Shown here: positions 22,363 to 39,310 of the stretch, piece after piece
Layout: every line of letters starts with the position of its first letter
Position numbering within the stretch: the stretch's first letter is position 1
Assembly: GCA_965223505.1 (NCBI GenBank)
Contig: CBDCWP010000017.1
Span: forward strand, 1 to 59,823
Source: Planctomycetota bacterium
Lineage (GTDB): Bacteria > Planctomycetota > PLA2 > JAEUHO01
Direction: 5' to 3'
DNA: 59,823 nucleotides
The notes under the pieces: generated by a model
Seen by the model: only the letters and a program-made list of their open reading frames with translations
Databases searched by the model: none
What the model was told of the DNA's origin: nothing
Program-made: the position numbers and the translations under genes

Positions 22363-22544
22363 CGCTGCTACTCCCGAATTTCCGCGGGGCGAACGGGAAA
22401 GATAGCAAGCGCCCCCCAGCGCCGAGACGGGATTCCCGGCAGGCGCGGGGCCCGCCGCCCCGGCGCCGAGGGCAGACGCGTCCGGCCGTGCCTTTCGGCG
22501 GGGGACGCGCTAGGATCGGCGGACTTCGGGTGGGAGATTCGAGA

Positions 22545-23783
22545 ATGACGCCGACGCACGTCACCACCGCGGTCCTGCTCCTCGTGACCCTCGGCGCGGC
22601 GGCGGCCCTGGCGGGTCCGGAGCCGATGCCCGGCGTCGGCCTGGACGAGGCGTGGCCGGACCTGACGTTCGTGGAGCCGCTGCAGGTCACGCACGCCGGC
22701 GACGGCTCGAACATGCTGTACGTGGTCGAGCGGGCGGGCCGGGTCCTGCGGCTGCCCCGGTACACGGGGCAGGGCGCCGTGCCGAAGCCCCAGGTCTTCC
22801 TGGACATGCGGAAGGTGGTCGGCGGCCTGGACAGCCAAGGGGGGCTGCTCTGCATCGCCTTTCATCCGAAGTACCGGCAGAATCGGAAGTTCTACGCGTG
22901 CTACGTGGACGAGAACGCCCATCCGAAGCTCCGCTACCGGATGCTGGTCGCGGAGCTGACCAGCGACGCCGCGAAGGCGCGGCTCGGCACGCTCCGCGTT
23001 CTGCTCGAGGTGCGCAAGGAGCACGCGAGCCACAACGGCGGCTGCATCACGTTCGGCCCGGACGGGATGCTCTACATCTCGACGGGCGACGACCGGCAGG
23101 ACCCCATGCTCGGCGCGGCCCACGCGTCTCAGCAGCCGCGCTCCCCGCTCGGCAAGATCCTGCGCATCGACGTCGACAGCCGCACCGGGCGCAAGCAGTA
23201 CGGCATTCCGGCGGACAACCCTTGGGCCAAGAAGCCGGACCGGGCGTTGCCGGAGATGTGGGCGTTCGGGATGCGCAACCCCTGGCGCATGTCGTTCGAC
23301 GGACGCGGCCGGTTGTGGACGGTCGAGCCGGGGACGTCGCCCGAGTTCGCGAAGAAGCAGGGCGGCACGTCGCGAGAGTGGGTGACGCAGATCAAGCGCG
23401 GGGGCAATCACGGCTGGCCCTACTACGAGGGCAAACGCAAGATCAGCGAACCGCCGGGCTGGGCGAAGCGCATGGGGCTCGTTCCGAAGACGTTCGAGTA
23501 CCTGAACGAGGGCGGCCGGCGCATGGCCGGCATCGGCGGGTTCGTCTACCGCGGCACGCGGGTGCCGGAGCTGTTCGGCAAGTACGTCTTCGGCGACTTC
23601 AAGACCGAAGAGGTCTACGCGATCGATCTGGTCGCGAGCGACGGCAAGATCGATGGACGCAACTGGCGCAAGCTGGGCGACGTCGTCGAGCTCGCGTCGC
23701 TCGGAGAGGACGAGCAGGGGGAGCTGTACTTCTGCAGCAACAGCCAAGACGGCTACATCGTGACGCTGGTGTCGGAGAATTGA
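22545..23783 (+). CDS. PQQ-dependent sugar dehydrogenase family protein (YliI/GdhB-type beta-propeller), copy 1
   Basis: Signal peptide; GLLCIAFHP, HNGGCITFGPDGMLYISTGD, GKILRIDVD, IPADNP, GMRNPWRMSFD and NHGWP motifs. Confidence 0.9.
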   Translation: MTPTHVTTAVLLLVTLGAAAALAGPEPMPGVGLDEAWPDLTFVEPLQVTHAGDGSNMLYVVERAGRVLRLPRYTGQGAVPKPQVFLDMRKVVGGLDSQGGLLCIAFHPKYRQNRKFYACYVDENAHPKLRYRMLVAELTSDAAKARLGTLRVLLEVRKEHASHNGGCITFGPDGMLYISTGDDRQDPMLGAAHASQQPRSPLGKILRIDVDSRTGRKQYGIPADNPWAKKPDRALPEMWAFGMRNPWRMSFDGRGRLWTVEPGTSPEFAKKQGGTSREWVTQIKRGGNHGWPYYEGKRKISEPPGWAKRMGLVPKTFEYLNEGGRRMAGIGGFVYRGTRVPELFGKYVFGDFKTEEVYAIDLVASDGKIDGRNWRKLGDVVELASLGEDEQGELYFCSNSQDGYIVTLVSEN

Positions 23784-23847
23784 CCGCTAGGGTACGAACG
23801 AGGTCTCGGGGACGGGTACCATGCGCCCCCTCGATCGGGAGAACGTC

Positions 23848-25062
23848 ATGTCGATTCGGTTCGCGCTAACCATCACCGCCGTTGCGGCTCTGGCCGTGCT
23901 GCCGCTGCTGCCCGCAGCGGGCGTCTTCGCGGCCCCGCCGCAGGTGCCGGGCGTGCGGCTCATCGAGGCCTGGCCGGACCGGGAGTTTCCGGAGCCGGTG
24001 GACATCGCCCATCACGGCACCGAGCGCATGTACGTCGTCAGCCAGCCGGGCCGGATCCGGGCGGTCATGAAGTGGCGCGGCGTCGGCCAGGCGGATCGGC
24101 CGAAGATGTTCCTCGACATCAAGTCGCGGGTCGCCGCCATTCAGCAAGGCGGACTCTTGTCCTTGGCGTTCCACCCACGCTTCGATCAGAACCGCAAGTT
24201 CTACGTTTGCTATCTGGCGAAGCACGCCGACCCGCAGCTGAAGTTCAAGCTGGTGGTCTCGGAGTTCACGGCGACCGGCGGCTCGGTGGACGCGTGCGTG
24301 GGCGACCCCAACACCGAGCGCAAGCTGCTCGAGATGCCGAAGAGGCTCCCGGTCCACCAGGGCGGCGATCTGGAATTCGGCCCGCGCGGGAAGCTGTTCG
24401 TATCGACCGGCGACGGCGGGATCGAGAAGGAAGGCAAGTCACAGGACATTCGGGGTTGGTTCGGCAAGATCCTGCGTATCGACGTCGACGCGCGCTCTGC
24501 GGGCAAGGCGTACGGCATCCCGTCGGACAACCCGTGGCCGAACATTCCGAACCAGGTCTTGCCGGAGCTGTACGCGTACGGTTTCCGCAACCCCTGGCGT
24601 ATGTCGTTCGACGCGCAGGGCCGTCTGTGGACGACGGAGCCGGGCACGAAGGGTCCGGACTCGCGCGAGTGGGTGATGCTGGTGCAGCGGGCGGGCAACC
24701 ACGGTTGGCCGTACTACGAGGGCAAGCGCAGGCTGCGCAACCCGCCGGCGAGCGTGAAGCTGGTGCCGCCGGTCTTCGAGTACGTGCGCGGCGCCGGGAC
24801 GGGTGGAACGGCGGGCATCGGTGGGTTCGTGTACCGCGGATCGCGTGTGCCGAGCTTGCGGGGCAAGTACGTGTTCGGCGACTACATGCGCGGCGAGGTG
24901 TACTGCATCGACCTCGCCGGCGCGGGCCAGGGCGTGACGGGCCGCAACTGGCGGAAGATCGGCGACGTGGACACGCTGTCCTCGATCGGCGAGGACGCGC
25001 AAGGCGAGCTCTACTTCTGCTCGAACGACGGTGGATTCATCTTCATGATGGCGCCCGAGTAG
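23848..25062 (+). CDS. PQQ-dependent sugar dehydrogenase family protein, copy 2 (tandem paralog)
   Basis: GLLSLAFHP, HQGGDLEFGP, GKILRIDVD, GFRNPWRMSFD and NHGWPYYEG motifs; GGGAG RBS before ATG 23848. Confidence 0.9.
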   Translation: MSIRFALTITAVAALAVLPLLPAAGVFAAPPQVPGVRLIEAWPDREFPEPVDIAHHGTERMYVVSQPGRIRAVMKWRGVGQADRPKMFLDIKSRVAAIQQGGLLSLAFHPRFDQNRKFYVCYLAKHADPQLKFKLVVSEFTATGGSVDACVGDPNTERKLLEMPKRLPVHQGGDLEFGPRGKLFVSTGDGGIEKEGKSQDIRGWFGKILRIDVDARSAGKAYGIPSDNPWPNIPNQVLPELYAYGFRNPWRMSFDAQGRLWTTEPGTKGPDSREWVMLVQRAGNHGWPYYEGKRRLRNPPASVKLVPPVFEYVRGAGTGGTAGIGGFVYRGSRVPSLRGKYVFGDYMRGEVYCIDLAGAGQGVTGRNWRKIGDVDTLSSIGEDAQGELYFCSNDGGFIFMMAPE

Positions 25063-25344: not shown

Positions 25345-25722
25345 ATGAACGATCTACCTGCCGGCGGATTCGCGCATCTGCGCCTTGACGCCTACCACAT
25401 CGCGCAAGATCTTGCGACTGAGTGCGTGCAGCGCACGAAGGACATCCCGCGCGGCTTCGCCGAGGTGCGTTGTCAGGCACAGCGAAGCGCGTTGGCAACG
25501 GTCCGGCACATTGCCGAGGGCGCCGAACGCGAAACGCCCGCGGACAAGTCCGCGCGCTTCATCCTCGCACGTAGCGAGGTAGCCGAGCTTGACGCGACCC
25601 TCGATACTGCGATTCGGCTCGCTCTCGTCCCACCCGAGCAAGGCGACGAACTCCGCGCCCTCGCCTCACGGGTCGGAGCAATGTTGAACGGTCTCATCCG
25701 CAGACAGCGGTCTTTGCAGTAG
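25345..25722 (+). CDS. Four helix bundle protein (23S rRNA IVP / Avd-like superfamily)
   Basis: F.H.RLDAY..A, P.G, Q..RSA....HIAEG..R, F..AR....E and V.AML.GL pattern; 125 aa; GGAG RBS. Confidence 0.85.
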   Translation: MNDLPAGGFAHLRLDAYHIAQDLATECVQRTKDIPRGFAEVRCQAQRSALATVRHIAEGAERETPADKSARFILARSEVAELDATLDTAIRLALVPPEQGDELRALASRVGAMLNGLIRRQRSLQ

Positions 25723-26538: not shown

Positions 26539-27510
26539 CTACTCGATGCCCTCTTCCGCCAACCAGCGCTCCGCGTCCAATGCACCCATGCATCCCGACC
26601 CGGCAGCCGTGATCGCCTGACGATAGACCTTGTCGGACACATCCCCCACCGCGAACACGCCGGGGATCTTCGTCTTCGACGTGCCCGGCTCGAACGGGAT
26701 GATGTAGCCCGACTCGTCCGTGTCGATCTGCCCGTCCAGGAACTTCGTGTTCGGCTCGTGGCCGATCGCGATGAAGAGCCCCTTGCACTCGAGGTTGCTC
26801 TTCTCGTTCGTCTGCGTGTCCGTCAGCTCGACGCCCGTGATGACCTCGTCGCCGTGCACGTCCGTGACGATCTTGTTCCAAGCCATCTCGACCTTCGGGT
26901 TGTTCAGCAGCCGGTCCTGCATGATCTTGCTCGCGCGCAGCTCGTCGCGCCGGTGCACCACCGTCACCTTCGACGCGAACTTGGTGAGGAACGTCGCTTC
27001 CTCGACCGCGGTGTCGCCACCGCCCACCACGACCAGATGCTGATCGCGGAACACGGGCAACGCCCCGTCACAGACGGCGCACGCGGACACGCCGCCGCCC
27101 GACTGCGCGAGCTTCTGCTCGTTGTCGAGCCAAAGCCACTTGGCCTTCGCGCCCGTCGCGATGATCGCGGCGTGGGTCTTGACCTCGTTGCCCTCGAGCG
27201 TGTGGAGCACGAACGGACGTTGTGAGAAGTCGCACTTCACGATGTCGTCCGTGATGACGCGCGTACCGAACCGCTCGGCCTGCTTCTTGAAGTCGGCCAT
27301 CATTTCCTGGCCGGTCACGCCTTCCGGGTAACCCGGGTAGTTCTCTACGTCGGTCGTGAACATCAGCTGACCACCGGGGATCATCTGCTGCGTGGGGGCG
27401 CCCTCGTAGACGAGAGGATCCAGGTCGGCGCGTGCCGCGTAGAGCGCCGCCGTCCAGCCCGCAGGGCCGGAACCGATGATCACCAGCTTCTCGACTCCGT
27501 TCTCGCTCAT
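26539..27510 (-). CDS. trxB: Thioredoxin-disulfide reductase
   Basis: [30 protein letters not shown] and [11 protein letters not shown] motifs; start ATG 27510. Confidence 0.97.
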
Positions 27511-27607
27511 GGATCTGCTCCCTCGAGGTGCGTTGGATCGGGATGCTACTCGCGCGGCGGCGCTTGTCATTCCCCAGACGGGCGTCGCGCGTCCCGGGTT
27601 GCGCGAA

Positions 27608-28216
27608 TCAGCCTTCGACGCGCCCGGCCGAGAGCCAGCGGAACGCGGCGAGGCACGTCCCGACCACGGCGATGCCCTGCAGGATCGACCGCTCCGCGTT
27701 CGCGTGGGCGTCGTCCTCGTCATCCGCCTCGCCGAGGAGGTCCGGCTCGGCCAGGTAGGTCGCCACGACGGGCCACGCCGCGTCGAACAGCGCGTACGCC
27801 TGCTCGCCGCGCGCGTCGAGCGCGACGTCCTCGCCGGCGAGGTACTCCTCGAGCGGACCGAGGACCTCGGCGGCGAGAGACTCGAAATACGCCTCCTCAC
27901 CGTCGTCCGGCTCTTCGACCAGGCGGGCCAGGGTCTCCGGCGGATCGGCGTCTTCGATGCCGGACGCCGCCAACACCGCGAGACTGCCGAGGTGCGCGAA
28001 GCGGAAGACGCGCTCGGCACGTTCGATGATCTCCGCAGCGGACTCGAGGTCGTCCGCGGCTTCGTCAGGCGCGACACCCTCGACGTTCGCGACCATCGCG
28101 GGCGCGTCGGCACACAGGCCGGCCCAGTGAAAACAGCCGGGGAACCAGTCCAGGAACCCGTCGCCGTAGGTTCCCATCGCCTCTTCGACGAAGTGGCGGA
28201 GCGCGTCCGTCGACAT
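27608..28216 (-). CDS. Hypothetical acidic helical protein
   Basis: 202-aa ORF with genome-typical codon use between the IscA-like gene and trxB; no family recognised. Confidence 0.65.
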
Positions 28217-28225
28217 GCGATGTCG

Positions 28226-28561
28226 CTACGCGGAGAACGAGCTGCCGCAGCCGCAGCTGCCGGTGGCGTTCGGGTTCTTGAACTCGAACCCCGATCCCAT
28301 CATCGACTCGGTGTAGTGGATCTGCGTGCCGCCCACGAACAGCGCGGACTTGGGGTCGACGTAGACCTCGAAGCCGTCGTAGGCGGTGATCACCTGGTCC
28401 TTCTCGTCCGGCCCGCGCTCCAGGGCGAGCTGGTAGCTCATGCCGGAGCAGCCGCCGCCGACGACCTTGACGCGCAGCCCCTTCGCCTCGCTCTGGGCCG
28501 GGTCGGCCATCAGCTCGCGGACCTTCTTCTCGGCCTCGGGTGTCAGGGTGACGGCAGTCAT
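28226..28561 (-). CDS. Iron-sulfur cluster assembly accessory protein (HesB/IscA/ErpA family)
   Basis: GGGCSG and [14 protein letters not shown] motifs. Confidence 0.95.
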
Positions 28562-28652: not shown

Positions 28653-30998
28653 ATGCGACCGATTCTGCCTCTCCTGATCGTCGTGACAGCGCTGGCGCTG
28701 TTCGGCTACGCCTGGATGAAGAGCGGCCCGCGGGAGGACGACGGCGCCGGCAACGGCGCGGACGCGCCCGACGCGCGCGGCACGTACCTGACCGACGAGC
28801 AGCGCGTTCGGCTCTTCGACCTCGAGCGCGCCGATCTGCTCCTGGGCCGCGCGCTGAAGCCCTGGACCGAGGCGATTCGGGCCAAGGACCGCGAGCGCAT
28901 CGGCGCAGCCCTGGCGTCGTCGTTCGAAGGGCGCTGTCCGATCGTGCCGAGCGGCGTGGAACGTCGCGCCGGCGGCGGGCTCGTTTTCGGACATGCGCGA
29001 CTCGAAGGCGCCGACGCGAAGACCGCAGAGACGTTCCTTGCGTGGATCATGGATCTGACGTCGAGGTTCGACCGCATCGACGCCGTGAAGTTCGGCCGGC
29101 GCTACAACAGTGTCGAGATCCTGGAGGGGCCGCAGGGCCGCGCCGAGAGCACCGGCACATGGCGGGTCGCGGGCGTGCGCGACGGCAGCGCACCGCTCGA
29201 GGTGTCGGGCAAGTTCCGTCTCCGGCACCGCGGCATGTCCCCGGACGCGCCGGTAGAGAATCCATGGATCTTCGGCCTGGAGCTCTTCGACGTCTCGGTG
29301 GTTCATGCCGAGCGCCCGCTCTTCCGGGAGATCACCGCGGACACCGGCATCGACGTCGACGGGCTGCATGACAACTGGCGGCCGGAGCATCTCGAGAAGT
29401 CCTTCCAGATCTTGACGGGCGGCATCTACCTGGGCGATGTGAACGGTGACGACCATCTCGACGCGCTCGTCACGGACGTGCACAGGACATGGCTCTACAT
29501 CGGCAAGGGCGACGGGAGCTTCGTGGACAGCGGTTGGAACCCGAAGGTGCCGGAACGGGTCTACGCGGCGCTCTTCGACGCGACGGGTGACGGACGGGTC
29601 GACGTGCTGCTCGACGGCCTGCTGTACGAATTCGACCCTCGGCAGGGCAAGCCCGTGCCGATCGAAGGCGCGACGCGCATGCCGAACGGCGACGCGAGCT
29701 TGTGTGACTACGACCGCGACGGACTCGTCGACGTGTACTTCCGCGACAGCGGGCGGTTCTACCCCGGCGACCAGCCTCGGGCGTTCTTCGACAACGACCG
29801 CATCGCGGGGCGCGAGAACCTGCTCTTCCGCAACCTGGGCGGCGGCAAGTTCGAGGACGTCACCGCCCTCGCGAAAGCCTCCGGAGGCTTCGGACGGACG
29901 TTCGCGACGACCTGGTTCTACGCCGACGGCGACGAGTGGCCCGACGTGTTCTGCGCGAACGAGTTCGGACGCAACGCGTTGCTGATCAACAACGGCGACG
30001 GCACCTTCGACGACGGGCCCGAGATCGACGCCCAGTTCGGCGGATTCTCGATGGGCGTCACCGCCGGAGATCTCGACGACGATGGGGTCACCGACCTCTA
30101 CGTGTCGAACATGTACTCCAAGGCGGGGCACCGTGTGTATCACCACCTCGACCTCGACGCGTACCCGCCGAACGTGCGGCGGATGTTCATGGCCTCGATC
30201 AAGGGCAACAAGTACTACCGCGGAAGGACGGGCACGGCGTTCGACGACTGGAGCTTCGACGCGGGCGTGAACGAGGTCGGCTGGGGTTGGTCCGGCGCGA
30301 TGGCCGACTTCGACCTGAACGGCCGGCTCGACATCTACGCACCGTGCGGACACTCGTCGGCGGACAAATCGAAGCCGGACGGGTGAGGCTGTGTCTGGCA
30401 GGCTGTGGCTGCGCAGCCGTTCAACACCTCCAAGAGACACTCGGCGCCGCGCGACCCCGACGAGCGGGTCAACGAGTTCTGGCTCGAGAACCCGTTCGAC
30501 TTCGAGCGCCGCAAGGGCTTCAACCTCTCGATGTACGAGCGCAACCGGATGTTCCTCAACATGGACGGGCGCAGTTTCGCGGAAGCGTCGCACGTCAGCG
30601 CAACGGACATCGATGCCGACTCGCGCGCGGTCGCCGTCGGCGACCTCAACGAGGACGGACGTCCGGACTTGATCGTGCGGTCGGTGGGTGGCGGCGTGTT
30701 GCGGGTGTACCTCAATCAGATTCCCGCGCGCGCGTCGGTACGGGTCACGTTGCGAGGCAGGCGCTCGAACAGCGCCGGGATCGGCGCGCGGATGGTGATG
30801 GACCTGGGCGGCCGCAAGCTGCATCGGGACCACTTTCCGCAGAACAGCCTCATGGCGCAGACGGCGACGGAGACGATCTTCGGGCTCGGGGACTACGACG
30901 GACCCATGACGCTGACGATCACGTGGCCGTCGGGCGCGGTGCAGGTCGTCGAGAACGTCAAGCCGGGGCGACATGTGATCGAAGAACCGGACGCATAG
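28653..30998 (+). CDS. FG-GAP/VCBS-repeat + ASPIC/UnbV (CRTAC1-like) protein with an in-frame TGA at 30384-30386; candidate selenoprotein, alternatively two genes or a pseudogene
   Basis: ORFs 28653-30386 and 30405-30998 are in the same frame. DxDxDG repeats occur on both sides of the TGA; the C-terminus has SNSAGIGAR, FGLG and ITWPSG. Confidence 0.7.
30387..30418 (+). promoter_or_regulatory. Candidate bacterial SECIS hairpin
   Basis: GGCTGTG-GCTG-CGCAGCC (30401-30418) forms a 7-bp stem with a 4-nt loop starting with G; 21 nt lie between the TGA and the loop. Confidence 0.55.
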
Positions 30999-31341: not shown

Positions 31342-32331
31342 TCAACGCTCCGACTCGCCGTCGATCCGTCGCGCATCCTCCATCAGGTTGATGTCGTACA
31401 GCACCTGATCCAACCAGTCGCCCGCCTGGATCGCGCCCTCGCGCTGCGGATGCTCCGCATCGATGCACGTCGGCAACGGAACCAGAATCGTCCGCGGCGT
31501 GGGGTGGCAGAACTGGACGACCGAAAATCGCTCCTCCGTCTGCGCCGGGTCCGCGACGACCCGATGCGTACCCGCCGGGATCCGACCGTTCGACAAGAGC
31601 GCCAGCATCATGCCCGTGTTCAGGATCGCGGCGTTCTCCGGCGGCGCGGCATCGACGTACGCGCCTTCCACGCTCACCTGCAATCCGCGCGACGTCGCGC
31701 GCGGCAGTGCCGTGATGAGATTGATGTCGTCGTGCGCCTCGGCCCAGATGTGGCCGCCCTCCGGCGCCTCCCCCATCGGCGGATACCGAATCGCACGACA
31801 CAGCGTCGGCCCCTCCTTCAACATGCCGTCGAAGAACGAAGGATGCACTCCCAATCCCTCCGCGATGATGCGCAGGAAGCGCCGCTGAAGGTCGAGCAGC
31901 CGGTCGTACAGCAACGTGAGCGCCGCGGCGATGCCCGGCACGTCGGGCTCCGGAAACACCCGCTCCATGTACCGGTGGGGAAAGGCACGCCGAAGCGGAT
32001 GGCCTTCGGGCAGCTCGATGCCCCAGTTGAGCATCTCTTTCCAATCCGGCCGGTCCGCGACGGCCGCCGCTTCGACCATCAACCCCGTGTACCCGGTCTG
32101 CCCCATGGAACCGGGCCGCACGTACGCCTCCTTCGTCGCCCTGGGAAGGTGGAAAAAGGCGGCGAGCATCTCGTACGCGTCGTCGATGACCCCCTGGGGG
32201 ACGTCATGCTGCGCGTAGACGAATCCCGTTTGCAGGCTGCGCATGACGCCGTCGACGACGCTCTTGCGCTGTGTACGGTCGCCGCGCTCGTAGCGCAGCA
32301 GATCGACGTCGAGAATGCGGGCGGACGTCAT
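31342..32331 (-). CDS. Isopenicillin N synthase family 2OG-Fe(II) oxygenase
   Basis: GFVY..H, RAIRYPP, HDD (HxD), NTG.ML..LSNG, THRV and RFSVVQF motifs. Confidence 0.9.
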   Translation of the reverse strand: MTSARILDVDLLRYERGDRTQRKSVVDGVMRSLQTGFVYAQHDVPQGVIDDAYEMLAAFFHLPRATKEAYVRPGSMGQTGYTGLMVEAAAVADRPDWKEMLNWGIELPEGHPLRRAFPHRYMERVFPEPDVPGIAAALTLLYDRLLDLQRRFLRIIAEGLGVHPSFFDGMLKEGPTLCRAIRYPPMGEAPEGGHIWAEAHDDINLITALPRATSRGLQVSVEGAYVDAAPPENAAILNTGMMLALLSNGRIPAGTHRVVADPAQTEERFSVVQFCHPTPRTILVPLPTCIDAEHPQREGAIQAGDWLDQVLYDINLMEDARRIDGESER

Positions 32332-36439: not shown

Positions 36440-37561
36440 CTACTCGAACGTGAAACCCGCGGCGCGCGCCTGGTCGCGAATCGCATCACGCAACGCGCGA
36501 TCGAGCAGCTTCGAGTCGTCGAGTCCGCGCTTGGACATTTCCGCCTCGATGTACGCCGCGCGCCTGGCGCTCAGCGCCCTGATCTTCGCTCGAAGGTCTG
36601 CACGCTCCTCGGCCTTCTTCTCGAGATGCGCCTTGCGTTCGGCAGGCGAGAGCTCCTTCAGCTCCTCGGGCAGGTCCTTCTCCGCCACACGGCCGAGGTC
36701 GAAACCCCGGAGGCGCGCGTCCGAGACGAGGTCGTCCCGCTTCCGGTACAGCGCACCCGCCTTGGCCGCGGCGCGCTCCGCCGCAATGCCCGCCCCGGCC
36801 GCGCCGGCGCTCTTGTCCGAGTCTTCCTGGCGGCGCTTCTTCGTCTTGCGATCGGCGCCGTAGAAGAGATACGTACCACTCAAGTCGCGCGAGAGCTTCG
36901 CCAGCTCCTTGTCGAACGGCGTCGAGAGCTCGACCTTCTGGTTGTGGTCGATCGAGGCGAACTTGCCCTTGCCGAGCGCGGCGACCTCGCGCCAGCCGGC
37001 GGCGACGGCGTCGTCCGCACCGCCGCAGTAGACCGCGTTGACCCGAACTTTGCGCTCGACCGCGCGCTTCACGACCTTGCGAAAAGGCCGATCGCGGTCC
37101 TGGTCGGCGGACTCGTTGCCCGCTACGAACGCGATGCGCAGAGAATCGGCTCTGTCGGACCACGACAAGTCGTTGAGCGCGTAGTGCAGCACCCGGCCGA
37201 CGTACTCGACACCGCCGTTGGTGCGCAGGGCGAAGAGCGTTTCGCTCAGCGTATCGAGATCTTCGGTGAAGTCCTCCCGGACGATGACGTGTCCGGTTGC
37301 GCTGTTGCCCGGCCCGCCGTACGTCAGCAGTGCGACGCGTAGCGTGGGTGTGGGCTTGGCGCGCGCCAGCTCCGCGACGACCTTCCAGAGCTTCTCTCGA
37401 GCGGCCTCGATCAGCCCCTCCATGCTGCCGCTGGTGTCGAGGCAGAGTGCGATCTCGACGACGCGGGGCTGTGGTTTCTTGGCCGCCTCGTCGGCGGCGG
37501 CAAGGCCCGAACAGCCGACGATGAGGGCAAGTACGACGAACACGCGAATGAGCTGAATCAT
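36440..37561 (-). CDS. Exported vWA domain-containing protein
   Basis: Signal peptide; LDTSGSM MIDAS motif; TNGGVEYVG and AGNE; GAGGAG RBS before ATG 37561. Confidence 0.88.
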   Translation of the reverse strand: MIQLIRVFVVLALIVGCSGLAAADEAAKKPQPRVVEIALCLDTSGSMEGLIEAAREKLWKVVAELARAKPTPTLRVALLTYGGPGNSATGHVIVREDFTEDLDTLSETLFALRTNGGVEYVGRVLHYALNDLSWSDRADSLRIAFVAGNESADQDRDRPFRKVVKRAVERKVRVNAVYCGGADDAVAAGWREVAALGKGKFASIDHNQKVELSTPFDKELAKLSRDLSGTYLFYGADRKTKKRRQEDSDKSAGAAGAGIAAERAAAKAGALYRKRDDLVSDARLRGFDLGRVAEKDLPEELKELSPAERKAHLEKKAEERADLRAKIRALSARRAAYIEAEMSKRGLDDSKLLDRALRDAIRDQARAAGFTFE

Positions 37562-37637
37562 GACGAACTCCTCACGGGTCGGTCTCACCCCAACATAGAC
37601 CCGAAAGAAGGGAACGAGTTCCGACTACATTCTCGAC

Positions 37638-38798
37638 GTGGATCCGATCGAACGACTCGCCGCCGTCGCTGCGCGCCGAAGCCGCCTGGCGCTCGGCTTG
37701 ATGTCCGGAATGAGCATGGACGGGCTGGATCTGGCGCTCGTGCGAATCGAGCACGAGCCGGATCGCGTGCGCCCCGCCGTCGAGCTCGTCGCGGCGCGCA
37801 CGGCTCCGTACGACGACGCGCTGCGCGCCAGGATCCGTGACGCGGCGACCGCCGGTCCCGCAACCGTCGCGCGGCTCGACTTCGAGCTGGCGTCGCGCTG
37901 GGCGGACGATGTGTCGGCCTTTCTCGAGAGCGCGAACGTCGCCGCGTCCGACGTGGATCTGATCGGCTCGCACGGGCAGACGATCCACCATACGCCGCGG
38001 GACGGATCGACCGGCGCCTTCACGTTGCAGATCGGCCAGGCCGACGTGCTCGCCGCGCGCACCGGCATCCTCACGGTCTCGGACTTTCGTCCGCGCGACG
38101 TCGCCGCGGGTGGCGAGGGTGCGCCGCTCATCCCGTATGCGGATTGGCTGTTGTACGCCGAAAGCGACGCGACCACCGCGTGCCACAACCTGGGCAGCAT
38201 CGCGAACGTGACGGTCGTGACGCCGGCGCTGGAGGACGTGATCGCGTTCGACACCGGACCGGCCAACGCGCTCATCGACTCCTTTGCGGGGGGCATCGAC
38301 ATGGACGGCCAGATCTCCGCCCACGGCACGGTCGACGACGACGCGCTCTTGTCGCTGTTCACGCGTCGGTCGAAGTGGCTGTCGCAGGCACCGCCGAAGA
38401 GCGCGGGCTTCGAGACGTTCGGGCCGGCGCTGGCTGCCGAGATCGCAGCCGCGCACCCGCAGGTCGAGCGGGACGACCTGGTGCGAACGGCGGTCGAGTT
38501 CACCGCCAACACCCTGCGCAACGCCTATGAGTGGCACGTGCTCACCCGCTTTCCCGGCCTTCGTCGCGTTCGTTTCAGCGGCGGCGGCACGCGCAACCCG
38601 ACGCTGATGAACCGCATCCTCGCCGAGCTCGGCCGGCTCGACCTGGAGGTGAGCGTGCTGGAGCCGCGTTGGTCCGACGCCAAGGAAGCGGTCGGGTTCG
38701 CGCTGCTGGCGGACGCGACGCTTCGCGGCACGCCGAGCAACGTGCCGGCGGCGACCGGCGCGACGCACCCCGTCGTCCTGGGGAAGATCTCCCTGTGA
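37638..38798 (+). CDS. anmK: Anhydro-N-acetylmuramic acid kinase
   Basis: GLMSG.SMDG.D, GSHGQT..H, DFR..D.AAGGEGAPL, FDTGPAN, PPKS and KEA..FA motifs. Confidence 0.95.
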   Translation: MDPIERLAAVAARRSRLALGLMSGMSMDGLDLALVRIEHEPDRVRPAVELVAARTAPYDDALRARIRDAATAGPATVARLDFELASRWADDVSAFLESANVAASDVDLIGSHGQTIHHTPRDGSTGAFTLQIGQADVLAARTGILTVSDFRPRDVAAGGEGAPLIPYADWLLYAESDATTACHNLGSIANVTVVTPALEDVIAFDTGPANALIDSFAGGIDMDGQISAHGTVDDDALLSLFTRRSKWLSQAPPKSAGFETFGPALAAEIAAAHPQVERDDLVRTAVEFTANTLRNAYEWHVLTRFPGLRRVRFSGGGTRNPTLMNRILAELGRLDLEVSVLEPRWSDAKEAVGFALLADATLRGTPSNVPAATGATHPVVLGKISL

Positions 38799-39310
38799 TC
38801 GCGCTGCGCATCATGACCGTCGACGACGCCGACGTGCTCGGCAGGTTGCACACCGCCTCCTGGCGTGCGGCGTATCGCGGCATCATGCCGGACGAGGTTC
38901 TCGAAGGGCTCGATGCGAACGCGAGCGCCAAGCGTTGGCGTACCAACATCGCGAAGCGACGGCCTGACATCCGCAACGTGGTGGCCGTCGACGAGCGGGG
39001 CGGCATTCGCGGCTTCTGCACGACGGGCGAGGTGCGTGACGACGATCTGAACGACACGGCGGTCGAGCTGTACGCGATCTACGTGTGGCCGGACGACACG
39101 CGCGGCGGCATCGGCCGGCTGATGATGGAGGACGCGCTCGACAACGCGCGCAGCAAGGGCTTTCGCGAGATGGTGTTGTGGGTGTTGACCGAGAACGGCC
39201 CGTCGCGCCGGTTTTACGAGGCGACGGGATTCGAGGTGGACGAGCGTGTGGGGCAGAAAGAGTTTCGGGACACGGGGGTGTACGAGACGAGGTATCGGCA
39301 GGTCTTGTAG
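38795..39310 (+). CDS. GNAT family N-acetyltransferase
   Basis: ELYAIYV.P...GGIGR.LM and LWVL.EN..SRRFYE..GF motifs; GTG start overlaps the anmK stop. Confidence 0.9.
   Translation: MIALRIMTVDDADVLGRLHTASWRAAYRGIMPDEVLEGLDANASAKRWRTNIAKRRPDIRNVVAVDERGGIRGFCTTGEVRDDDLNDTAVELYAIYVWPDDTRGGIGRLMMEDALDNARSKGFREMVLWVLTENGPSRRFYEATGFEVDERVGQKEFRDTGVYETRYRQVL

Follow-up and report, generated by a model that had tools for sequence, protein, structure and literature searches.

The window analysed here, i.e. the whole stretch of 59,823 nucleotides (nt) that makes up positions 1 to 59,823 of contig CBDCWP010000017.1 (GenBank assembly GCA_965223505.1, Planctomycetota bacterium), carries on its plus strand, at 28653-30998, a gene interrupted by an in-frame TGA codon. 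Two open reading frames (ORFs), 28653-30386 (577 aa) and 30405-30998 (197 aa, with a GTG start), lie in a single frame and only the TGA at 30384-30386 stands between them. When this codon is read through, the gene comprises 781 codons followed by a TAG stop, and the junction of the resulting 781-residue protein reads …KPDG-U-GCVW… (motif D-G-U-G-C-V-W, U being selenocysteine, Sec). The first-pass annotation of this DNA had proposed exactly such a single chain, a propeller followed by an ASPIC/UnbV domain, and the ORFs, the translation and the Pfam matches agree with it. Its remark that a cysteine follows the UGA at a distance of two residues (U-x-C) is likewise borne out by the translation. 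The upstream cysteine of the APCGH stretch was misplaced: it was said to lie 11 residues before the UGA and is in fact residue 565, 13 before U578. We consider it very probable that 28653-30998 is one gene for an exported, probably membrane-anchored CRTAC1-like protein, in which the UGA at codon 578 is decoded as selenocysteine by means of a selenocysteine insertion sequence (SECIS) hairpin.

Several parts can be delimited in the read-through protein. A hydrophobic helix at residues 4-23 (28662-28721), followed in the structural model by a low-confidence linker (residues 25-39), would on the strength of that model act as a signal anchor or a signal peptide. The alpha+beta domain at residues 48-226 (28794-29330), delimited by the secondary structure of the model, has no Pfam match and is shared with the closer Sec-type relatives in a 9-sequence alignment of the window's clade. 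An FG-GAP beta-propeller with repeated D-x-D-x-D-G-type loops occupies approximately residues 240-690 (29370-30722) and is supported by Foldseek, by conserved Asp columns and by Pfam, which finds four FG-GAP_3 stretches (113 bits, cut-off 26.9). Within it lie the codons of Met467 (30051-30053), which is invariant in the Sec-type proteins, and of Met487 (30111-30113), which is near-invariant there, as well as the UGA codon 578 and the codon of Cys580 (30390-30392), a candidate resolving cysteine that is invariant in the 9-sequence alignment. The C-terminal UnbV_ASPIC domain (PF07593) covers residues 709-773 (30777-30971; E 8.5e-12, 45.2 bits, cut-off 23.4). A comparison of the whole read-through protein with NCBIfam returned no family match.

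An AlphaFold2 model built on a 73-sequence alignment (mean predicted local distance difference test score, pLDDT, 92.7; predicted template modelling score, pTM, 0.91) shows a single fold across the junction. It consists of the hydrophobic helix 4-23, a disordered linker, the alpha+beta part 48-226, the propeller up to about residue 690 and a beta-sandwich at 695-777. Helix 578-587 of the model begins with residue 578, two positions before Cys580. The earlier proposal of a membrane-anchored, exported protein fits the predicted hydrophobic helix, together with the fusion of relatives to TlpA-like domains described below.

The TGA is kept in the family to a degree that is far beyond chance. It occupies the identical alignment column in all 52 distinct homologous Sec-type genes examined at the DNA level. 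When 61 related genomes were searched with the read-through protein, exactly one TGA was present in each of the 17 best matches, and in an alignment of 19 matches the TGA falls in one column in 15, the others having Cys (one, L036), Glu (one) or a gap (two ordinary CRTAC1-like proteins). Named genome records, scanned with the 9-sequence alignment, yielded 22 loci, all titled Planctomycetota or subgroups of it, with the TGA at the column in 22 of 22 (25 gene copies); eight of these loci duplicate earlier ones and three carry two tandem paralogues. Both members of each tandem pair have a TGA at the column as well as a hairpin of their own (L052, at about 2181 and 4810; L053, at about 2176 and 4804; L055, at about 2043 and 4702). 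In a sample of 401 genomes of the phylum searched at E<=1e-25, 94 genomes were matched, and the 146 matches listed have exactly one TGA in 122 cases, three in 1 and none in 23. A match with exactly one TGA is thus present in 82 of the 401 genomes, and the further one-TGA matches fetched from this sample have it at the same column in 20 of 20. The match with three TGAs (L114, G064:C78:23909-25660) has one at the Sec column; the other two, unplaced, might stem from read-through at the flanks, from damage or from additional Sec codons.

This conservation extends over considerable divergence, since identity to the window's protein falls to 27-34% in the sister-clade rows of a 15-gene alignment, and it includes the coding sequence on both sides of the codon. 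Of the 52 genes, 51 have Asp at position -2 and 50 have Trp at +4; Cys at +2 is found in 30. The first start-like codon after the UGA lies at +7 or later in 47 of the 52 genes and is the codon of a conserved Val; in the window the supposed start GTG 30405 is the codon of this conserved Val585, situated inside the hairpin. The base itself appears to be sound: four sequencing runs of a single sample, from which the window probably comes, gave contigs that are identical to it over 30100-30700. In this way two checks that the first-pass annotation had put forward, namely homologues that keep TGA or Cys at the column with coding conservation on both sides and confirmation of the base, turned out in its favour, the second at the level of run-level contigs, which reproduce the TGA.

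Directly after the UGA lies the hairpin GGCTGTG / GCTG / CGCAGCC (30401-30418), as the first-pass annotation had described it, with a 7-bp stem (30401-30407 paired with 30412-30418) and a 4-nt loop, GCUG (30408-30411), which begins with G and starts 21 nt after the TGA. The constraints on bacterial SECIS elements given in passages of a 2026 review (PMC13188914) are a loop of 3-9 nt, a stem of 4-16 bp, a G in the first two loop positions and a spacing of 16-37 nt, with a stability of <= -7.5 kcal/mol. The window's hairpin, at about -11 to -13 kcal/mol, satisfies all four bacterial SECIS constraints. Applied strictly, with bulges disallowed, these constraints are passed by 48 of the 52 genes, compared with 2686 of 33089 (8.1%) control in-frame positions of the same genes. 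A G in the first two loop positions together with a spacing of 16-21 nt is found in 47 of the 48 passing hairpins, and a hairpin lies 14-21 nt past the UGA in each of the first 32 distinct genes folded.

The stem is also maintained by covariation. In the window's clade (26 sequences), 88.5% of the cells pair, against 20-58% when the columns of the 3' partner are slid, and compensatory changes occur at three stem pairs (e.g. UA 21 / CG 4, and UA 14 / CG 6 / UG 6). The sister clade has a stem of different sequence and register, in which 88.1% of the cells pair and both-side changes are seen at four pairs. The SECIS-like nature claimed for this element is therefore upheld both by its fit to the published bacterial model and by its covariation. 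A search of 30300-30520 against Rfam at E<=10 gave only chance matches to microRNAs and small RNAs and no SECIS family.

The machinery for Sec insertion is encoded in the same genome, whose assembly is 92% complete and comprises 44 contigs. All four genes whose presence had been named as a check, selA, selB, selC and selD, were found: selA (507 bits), selB (336 bits) and selD (338 bits) score above the curated cut-offs, and a selenocysteine tRNA (tRNA-Sec) is recognized with 69.2 bits (cut-off 47) and an anticodon that ARAGORN reads as TCA. The selA gene (36851-38236) is directly followed by selD (38315-39232) on another contig of this genome (G000:C8:36851-39232). There is also a single in-frame TGA within selD, and SelD is thus probably another selenoprotein of this genome. 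Across genomes, selA (E<=1e-40) is present in 80 of 83 carriers of the family as compared with 290 of 401 genomes of the phylum sample overall; the carriers are related, and this co-occurrence is therefore not a statistic on independent samples. Of the three carriers lacking selA, two have selB over its cut-off, namely G358 (67% complete), which has tRNA-Sec as well, and G359 (84% complete). As TGA ends three of the ten Pfam-supported genes in the window, the genetic code is standard, and a genome-wide reassignment of TGA, in which it would no longer be an ordinary stop, is ruled out.

Twenty-two non-TGA matches of the phylum sample were fetched. In seven of them the column is occupied by Cys, within a D-Y-C-[TS]-x-[FYW]-W motif; the remainder have E, D, N, A or R (10), a gap (4) or leave the column uncovered (1). 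The Cys forms were found in five genomes, two of which (G176 and G044) lack selA and selB over the cut-off, while the other three have both.

Considering structure, the best Foldseek match of the model is murine CRTAC1 (9etn_A; E 8.8e-23, template modelling score 0.68 on the target, 16% identity), followed by fungal FG-GAP lectins, PL11 lyases and integrin alpha chains. A profile search against CRTAC1 gave E 3.3e-34, with the UnbV_ASPIC domain aligned to CRTAC1 residues 377-483. Like the window's protein, murine CRTAC1 (PDB 9etn) and the ASPIC/UnbV family, which includes proteins that their sources name 'enediyne biosynthesis protein E4', combine an FG-GAP propeller with a following ASPIC/UnbV sandwich. 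CRTAC1, however, has neither the N-terminal alpha+beta domain nor Sec, and since it is unaligned at profile positions ~508-660, the part of the protein with the Sec-bearing helix has no counterpart in CRTAC1.

With the bacterial selenoprotein genes that depend on SelB and SECIS, whose archetype in the passages covered of PMC13188914 is the E. coli formate dehydrogenase genes, the window's gene shares a hairpin inside the ORF, directly after the UGA, that agrees with the four constraints. Its host protein is a propeller, unlike the molybdopterin or thioredoxin-fold enzymes of that group. Extracytoplasmic TlpA/ResA-like thioredoxin-fold oxidoreductases and the thioredoxin-fold selenoproteins with U-x-x-C have a reactive chalcogen in the first turn of a helix and a Cys nearby, as would the window's protein according to its model, with the motif U-x-C instead. 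A thioredoxin fold is not present in the window's protein, which has no thioredoxin-type Pfam match and folds as a propeller plus a sandwich; it occurs only as a fusion in relatives. By analogy, the window's protein may work like the thioredoxin-fold oxidoreductases without being a member of that group.

Two other explanations of the UGA have to be weighed against its decoding as Sec. The simplest of them takes the TGA as a true stop, so that the locus would hold two genes (577 aa and 197 aa) left by a split, a recent pseudogene or an assembly error. Gene callers indeed treat the codon in this way: of the 150 best database representatives, 95 break off directly before the column, with …PDG or something very similar as their last residues, and when the N-terminal part of a sister-clade gene was the query, all 120 best matches stopped just short of the column, at …MKDT. 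Nevertheless, we regard a true stop as extremely improbable. As many as 52 distinct genes, some with no more than about 28% identity, have the same single TGA, and the four run-level assemblies agree on the base. Because the conserved Cys at +2 and Trp at +4 precede any start-like codon, a restart after the TGA would leave conserved residues untranslated, and the supposed start at 30405 is merely the conserved Val585 codon in the hairpin. Moreover, in the model both halves fold into one domain arrangement. A stable hairpin just past a stop codon can promote read-through in general, and it could be argued that the UGA is mostly terminating, or is read through by a near-cognate tRNA with the help of the hairpin, giving forms of 577 and 781 residues without selenocysteine. 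The rarity of Cys at the column among most non-TGA homologues and the existence of a carrier without detectable selA and selB (G257) would fit this explanation, which we nonetheless consider very unlikely. The hairpins follow the SelB-type model in the G of the loop and in their spacing, selA accompanies the gene in nearly all of the carrier genomes, and in the two genomes with a Cys form for which no selA or selB was found, the column holds Cys and not TGA. In addition, a 577-residue product would, according to the model, lose one propeller blade and the whole ASPIC domain from a compact fold.

Several observations nonetheless weigh against decoding as Sec, or against a catalytic role for the residue. 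The genome G257, approximately 90% complete, has neither selA nor selB over the cut-off and only a 50.6-bit tRNA-Sec-like match. The homologue in this genome (L072) is of the close Sec-type and has a good hairpin. Four of the 52 hairpins fail the strict no-bulge test, and in single genes the stability of the hairpin is only moderately unusual, ranking in the top 0.2-19% of the windows of its own gene (median 4.4%). Near the window's clade, 27 of 29 full-length non-TGA representatives cover the junction and have S, D, E, A, N, V, L or Q there, the 27 including one gap and one unreliably aligned Cys; this predominance of residues other than Cys among full-length homologues is unusual for a catalytic Sec. 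Cys580 is absent from the sister clade, and of the six Sec loci of that clade with flanking sequence, four lack a fused thioredoxin domain. Even with these points counted, we hold that 28653-30998 is a genuine, experimentally unproven selenoprotein gene of the bacterial kind, with a SECIS inside the ORF and an unusual fold, and we infer from the sequences that selenium is actually inserted at residue 578.

How the selenocysteine would be made and used can be outlined as follows. SelB, carrying Sec-tRNA(Sec), would be recruited by the hairpin at 30401-30418 to the ribosome paused at the UGA, and the selA, selB, selC and selD genes of the genome would supply the rest of the insertion. Some substrate would then oxidise Sec578; in the window's clade the oxidised residue would be resolved as a selenylsulfide with Cys580 (U-x-C), while in relatives the recycling of Sec would fall to a TlpA-like thioredoxin domain with a CxxC motif, fused to the protein. 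Such domains are present in two Sec-type homologues (L031 and L037), where the ASPIC domain is followed by a C-terminal AhpC-TSA/Redoxin (TlpA-like) domain with an intact W-C-x-x-C, and among non-Sec relatives P0160, P0182, P0189 and P0212 combine FG-GAP, ASPIC, AhpC-TSA and TPR domains. A second recoded TGA, sought past the stops of L032, L034 and L027, was rejected: in L032 the extension enters a separate ferrochelatase gene and in the others it matches nothing. The ferrochelatase gene (L032:3073-4242; PF00762, E 1.6e-114) lies in the same frame beyond the TGA stop of the family gene.

A redox function outside the cytoplasm is favoured because a selenol at the start of a helix, beside a Cys, coincides with thioredoxin-like fusions in relatives. 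Given Sec insertion, the chances that Sec578 is a redox-active extracytoplasmic nucleophile seem to us about even. The bolder proposal is that of a novel type of extracytoplasmic selenoenzyme on a CRTAC1-like propeller scaffold, with Sec578 as its catalytic centre and, in relatives, the fused TlpA-like domain to recharge it; this we regard as rather unlikely. It is somewhat less doubtful, and still no better than a tentative suggestion, that Sec is inserted and serves as a ligand for a soft metal, in a Cu(I)-type or otherwise thiophilic site formed on one propeller face with Met467, Met487 and, in this clade, Cys580. Both methionines are linked to Sec and may lie near Sec578: of the 92 TGA-truncated representatives, all have Met467 and 91 have Met487, whereas the 24 full-length non-TGA homologues have them in 14 and 12 cases, respectively. 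The many Asp-rich calcium-type loops in the propeller would agree with metal binding, and the residues at the column in non-TGA homologues are mostly oxygen donors (S, D, E, N, Q), which fits a hard-metal ligand position turned thiophilic. Metals are also involved in many predicted contacts between Sec and its ligands, according to passages of PMC13188914. On the other hand, the methionines are found in about half of the non-Sec homologues as well, the closeness of Sec578, Met467 and Met487 is argued from general propeller geometry, and the fused CxxC thioredoxin domains point to redox chemistry.

The genes around the selenoprotein gene were considered as well. Upstream and divergent from it are an IscA-like gene (28226-28561) and, on the minus strand, a gene for a pyridine-nucleotide-disulfide oxidoreductase resembling thioredoxin reductase (26539-28113; an ORF of 524 aa, with Pyr_redox_2 covering residues 209-507). 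A 202-aa ORF at 27608-28216 overlaps the latter in another frame; it has no Pfam match, and its frame is conserved in L023. Downstream, in convergent orientation, lie a 2-oxoglutarate (2OG)-Fe(II) oxygenase gene (31342-32331) and an ABC ATPase gene. When 21 loci were compared, the neighbouring ORFs recurred only beside the two closest relatives, L022 and L023, and for this reason no functional link to the neighbours is drawn and a link to trxB in particular was dropped. The caution with which the first-pass annotation had treated the trxB/IscA genes as possibly unrelated was thus justified. Further upstream, on the plus strand, the window contains tandem genes for glucose/sorbosone dehydrogenase (GSDH) propellers (22488-23783 and 23821-25062) and, after them, a gene for a 23S rRNA-intervening-sequence protein (25345-25722), also on the plus strand.

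The question whether the family had been reported before, which the first-pass annotation had left unanswered, can be settled. Planctomycete ASPIC/UnbV FG-GAP genes were listed as selenoprotein candidates by Kim et al. (2016, PLoS One, Table S9; PMC4807772), four genes in all, each annotated as two adjacent genes; bSECISearch was positive for three of the four and the closest non-Sec match had Gly at the column. In the passages covered, the main text of that paper is silent on these candidates. They have the same domain make-up as the window's gene and come from the same phylum, the comparison being by description only, and from the domain names, the phylum and the two-gene annotation they likely belong to the same family. 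A full-text literature search found no main-text account of such a selenoprotein family. A term search of the main texts of the 2026 review (PMC13188914), a 2022 review and the deep-Sep paper gave no occurrence of FG-GAP, ASPIC, VCBS or Planctomycet-, and in the selenoprotein reviews that were searched the family seems not to be represented. New beyond Table S9 are the conservation in 52 genes, the covariation of the hairpin, the Cys forms, the structural model and the thioredoxin fusions.

The family is widespread, mis-annotated and essentially uncatalogued. Its absence from the catalogues may follow from the fact that most non-Sec relatives have no Cys at the site, on which the usual search methods rely, and because annotation cuts the gene in two, a large family of exported proteins is systematically mis-described. 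By the names that the sources give to the proteins, the family occurs also in Acidobacteriota: NCBI gives the names Acidobacteriota, Pyrinomonadaceae or Blastocatellia to several of the 120 sister-clade matches, which are known from protein records alone. It is unusual for an exported propeller protein to contain selenocysteine, and with a one-TGA match in about a fifth of the sampled phylum genomes the family may constitute a noteworthy sink for selenium in Planctomycetota.

To our knowledge, the ASPIC/UnbV superfamily has no assigned chemistry. The Sec residue and the thioredoxin fusions provide the first testable chemical hint, redox or thiophilic metal, for the ASPIC/UnbV/CRTAC1 superfamily. 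If Sec578 is indeed catalytic, the members of this superfamily, including vertebrate CRTAC1 and the proteins named 'enediyne biosynthesis protein E4', would be redox enzymes or soft-metal binders.

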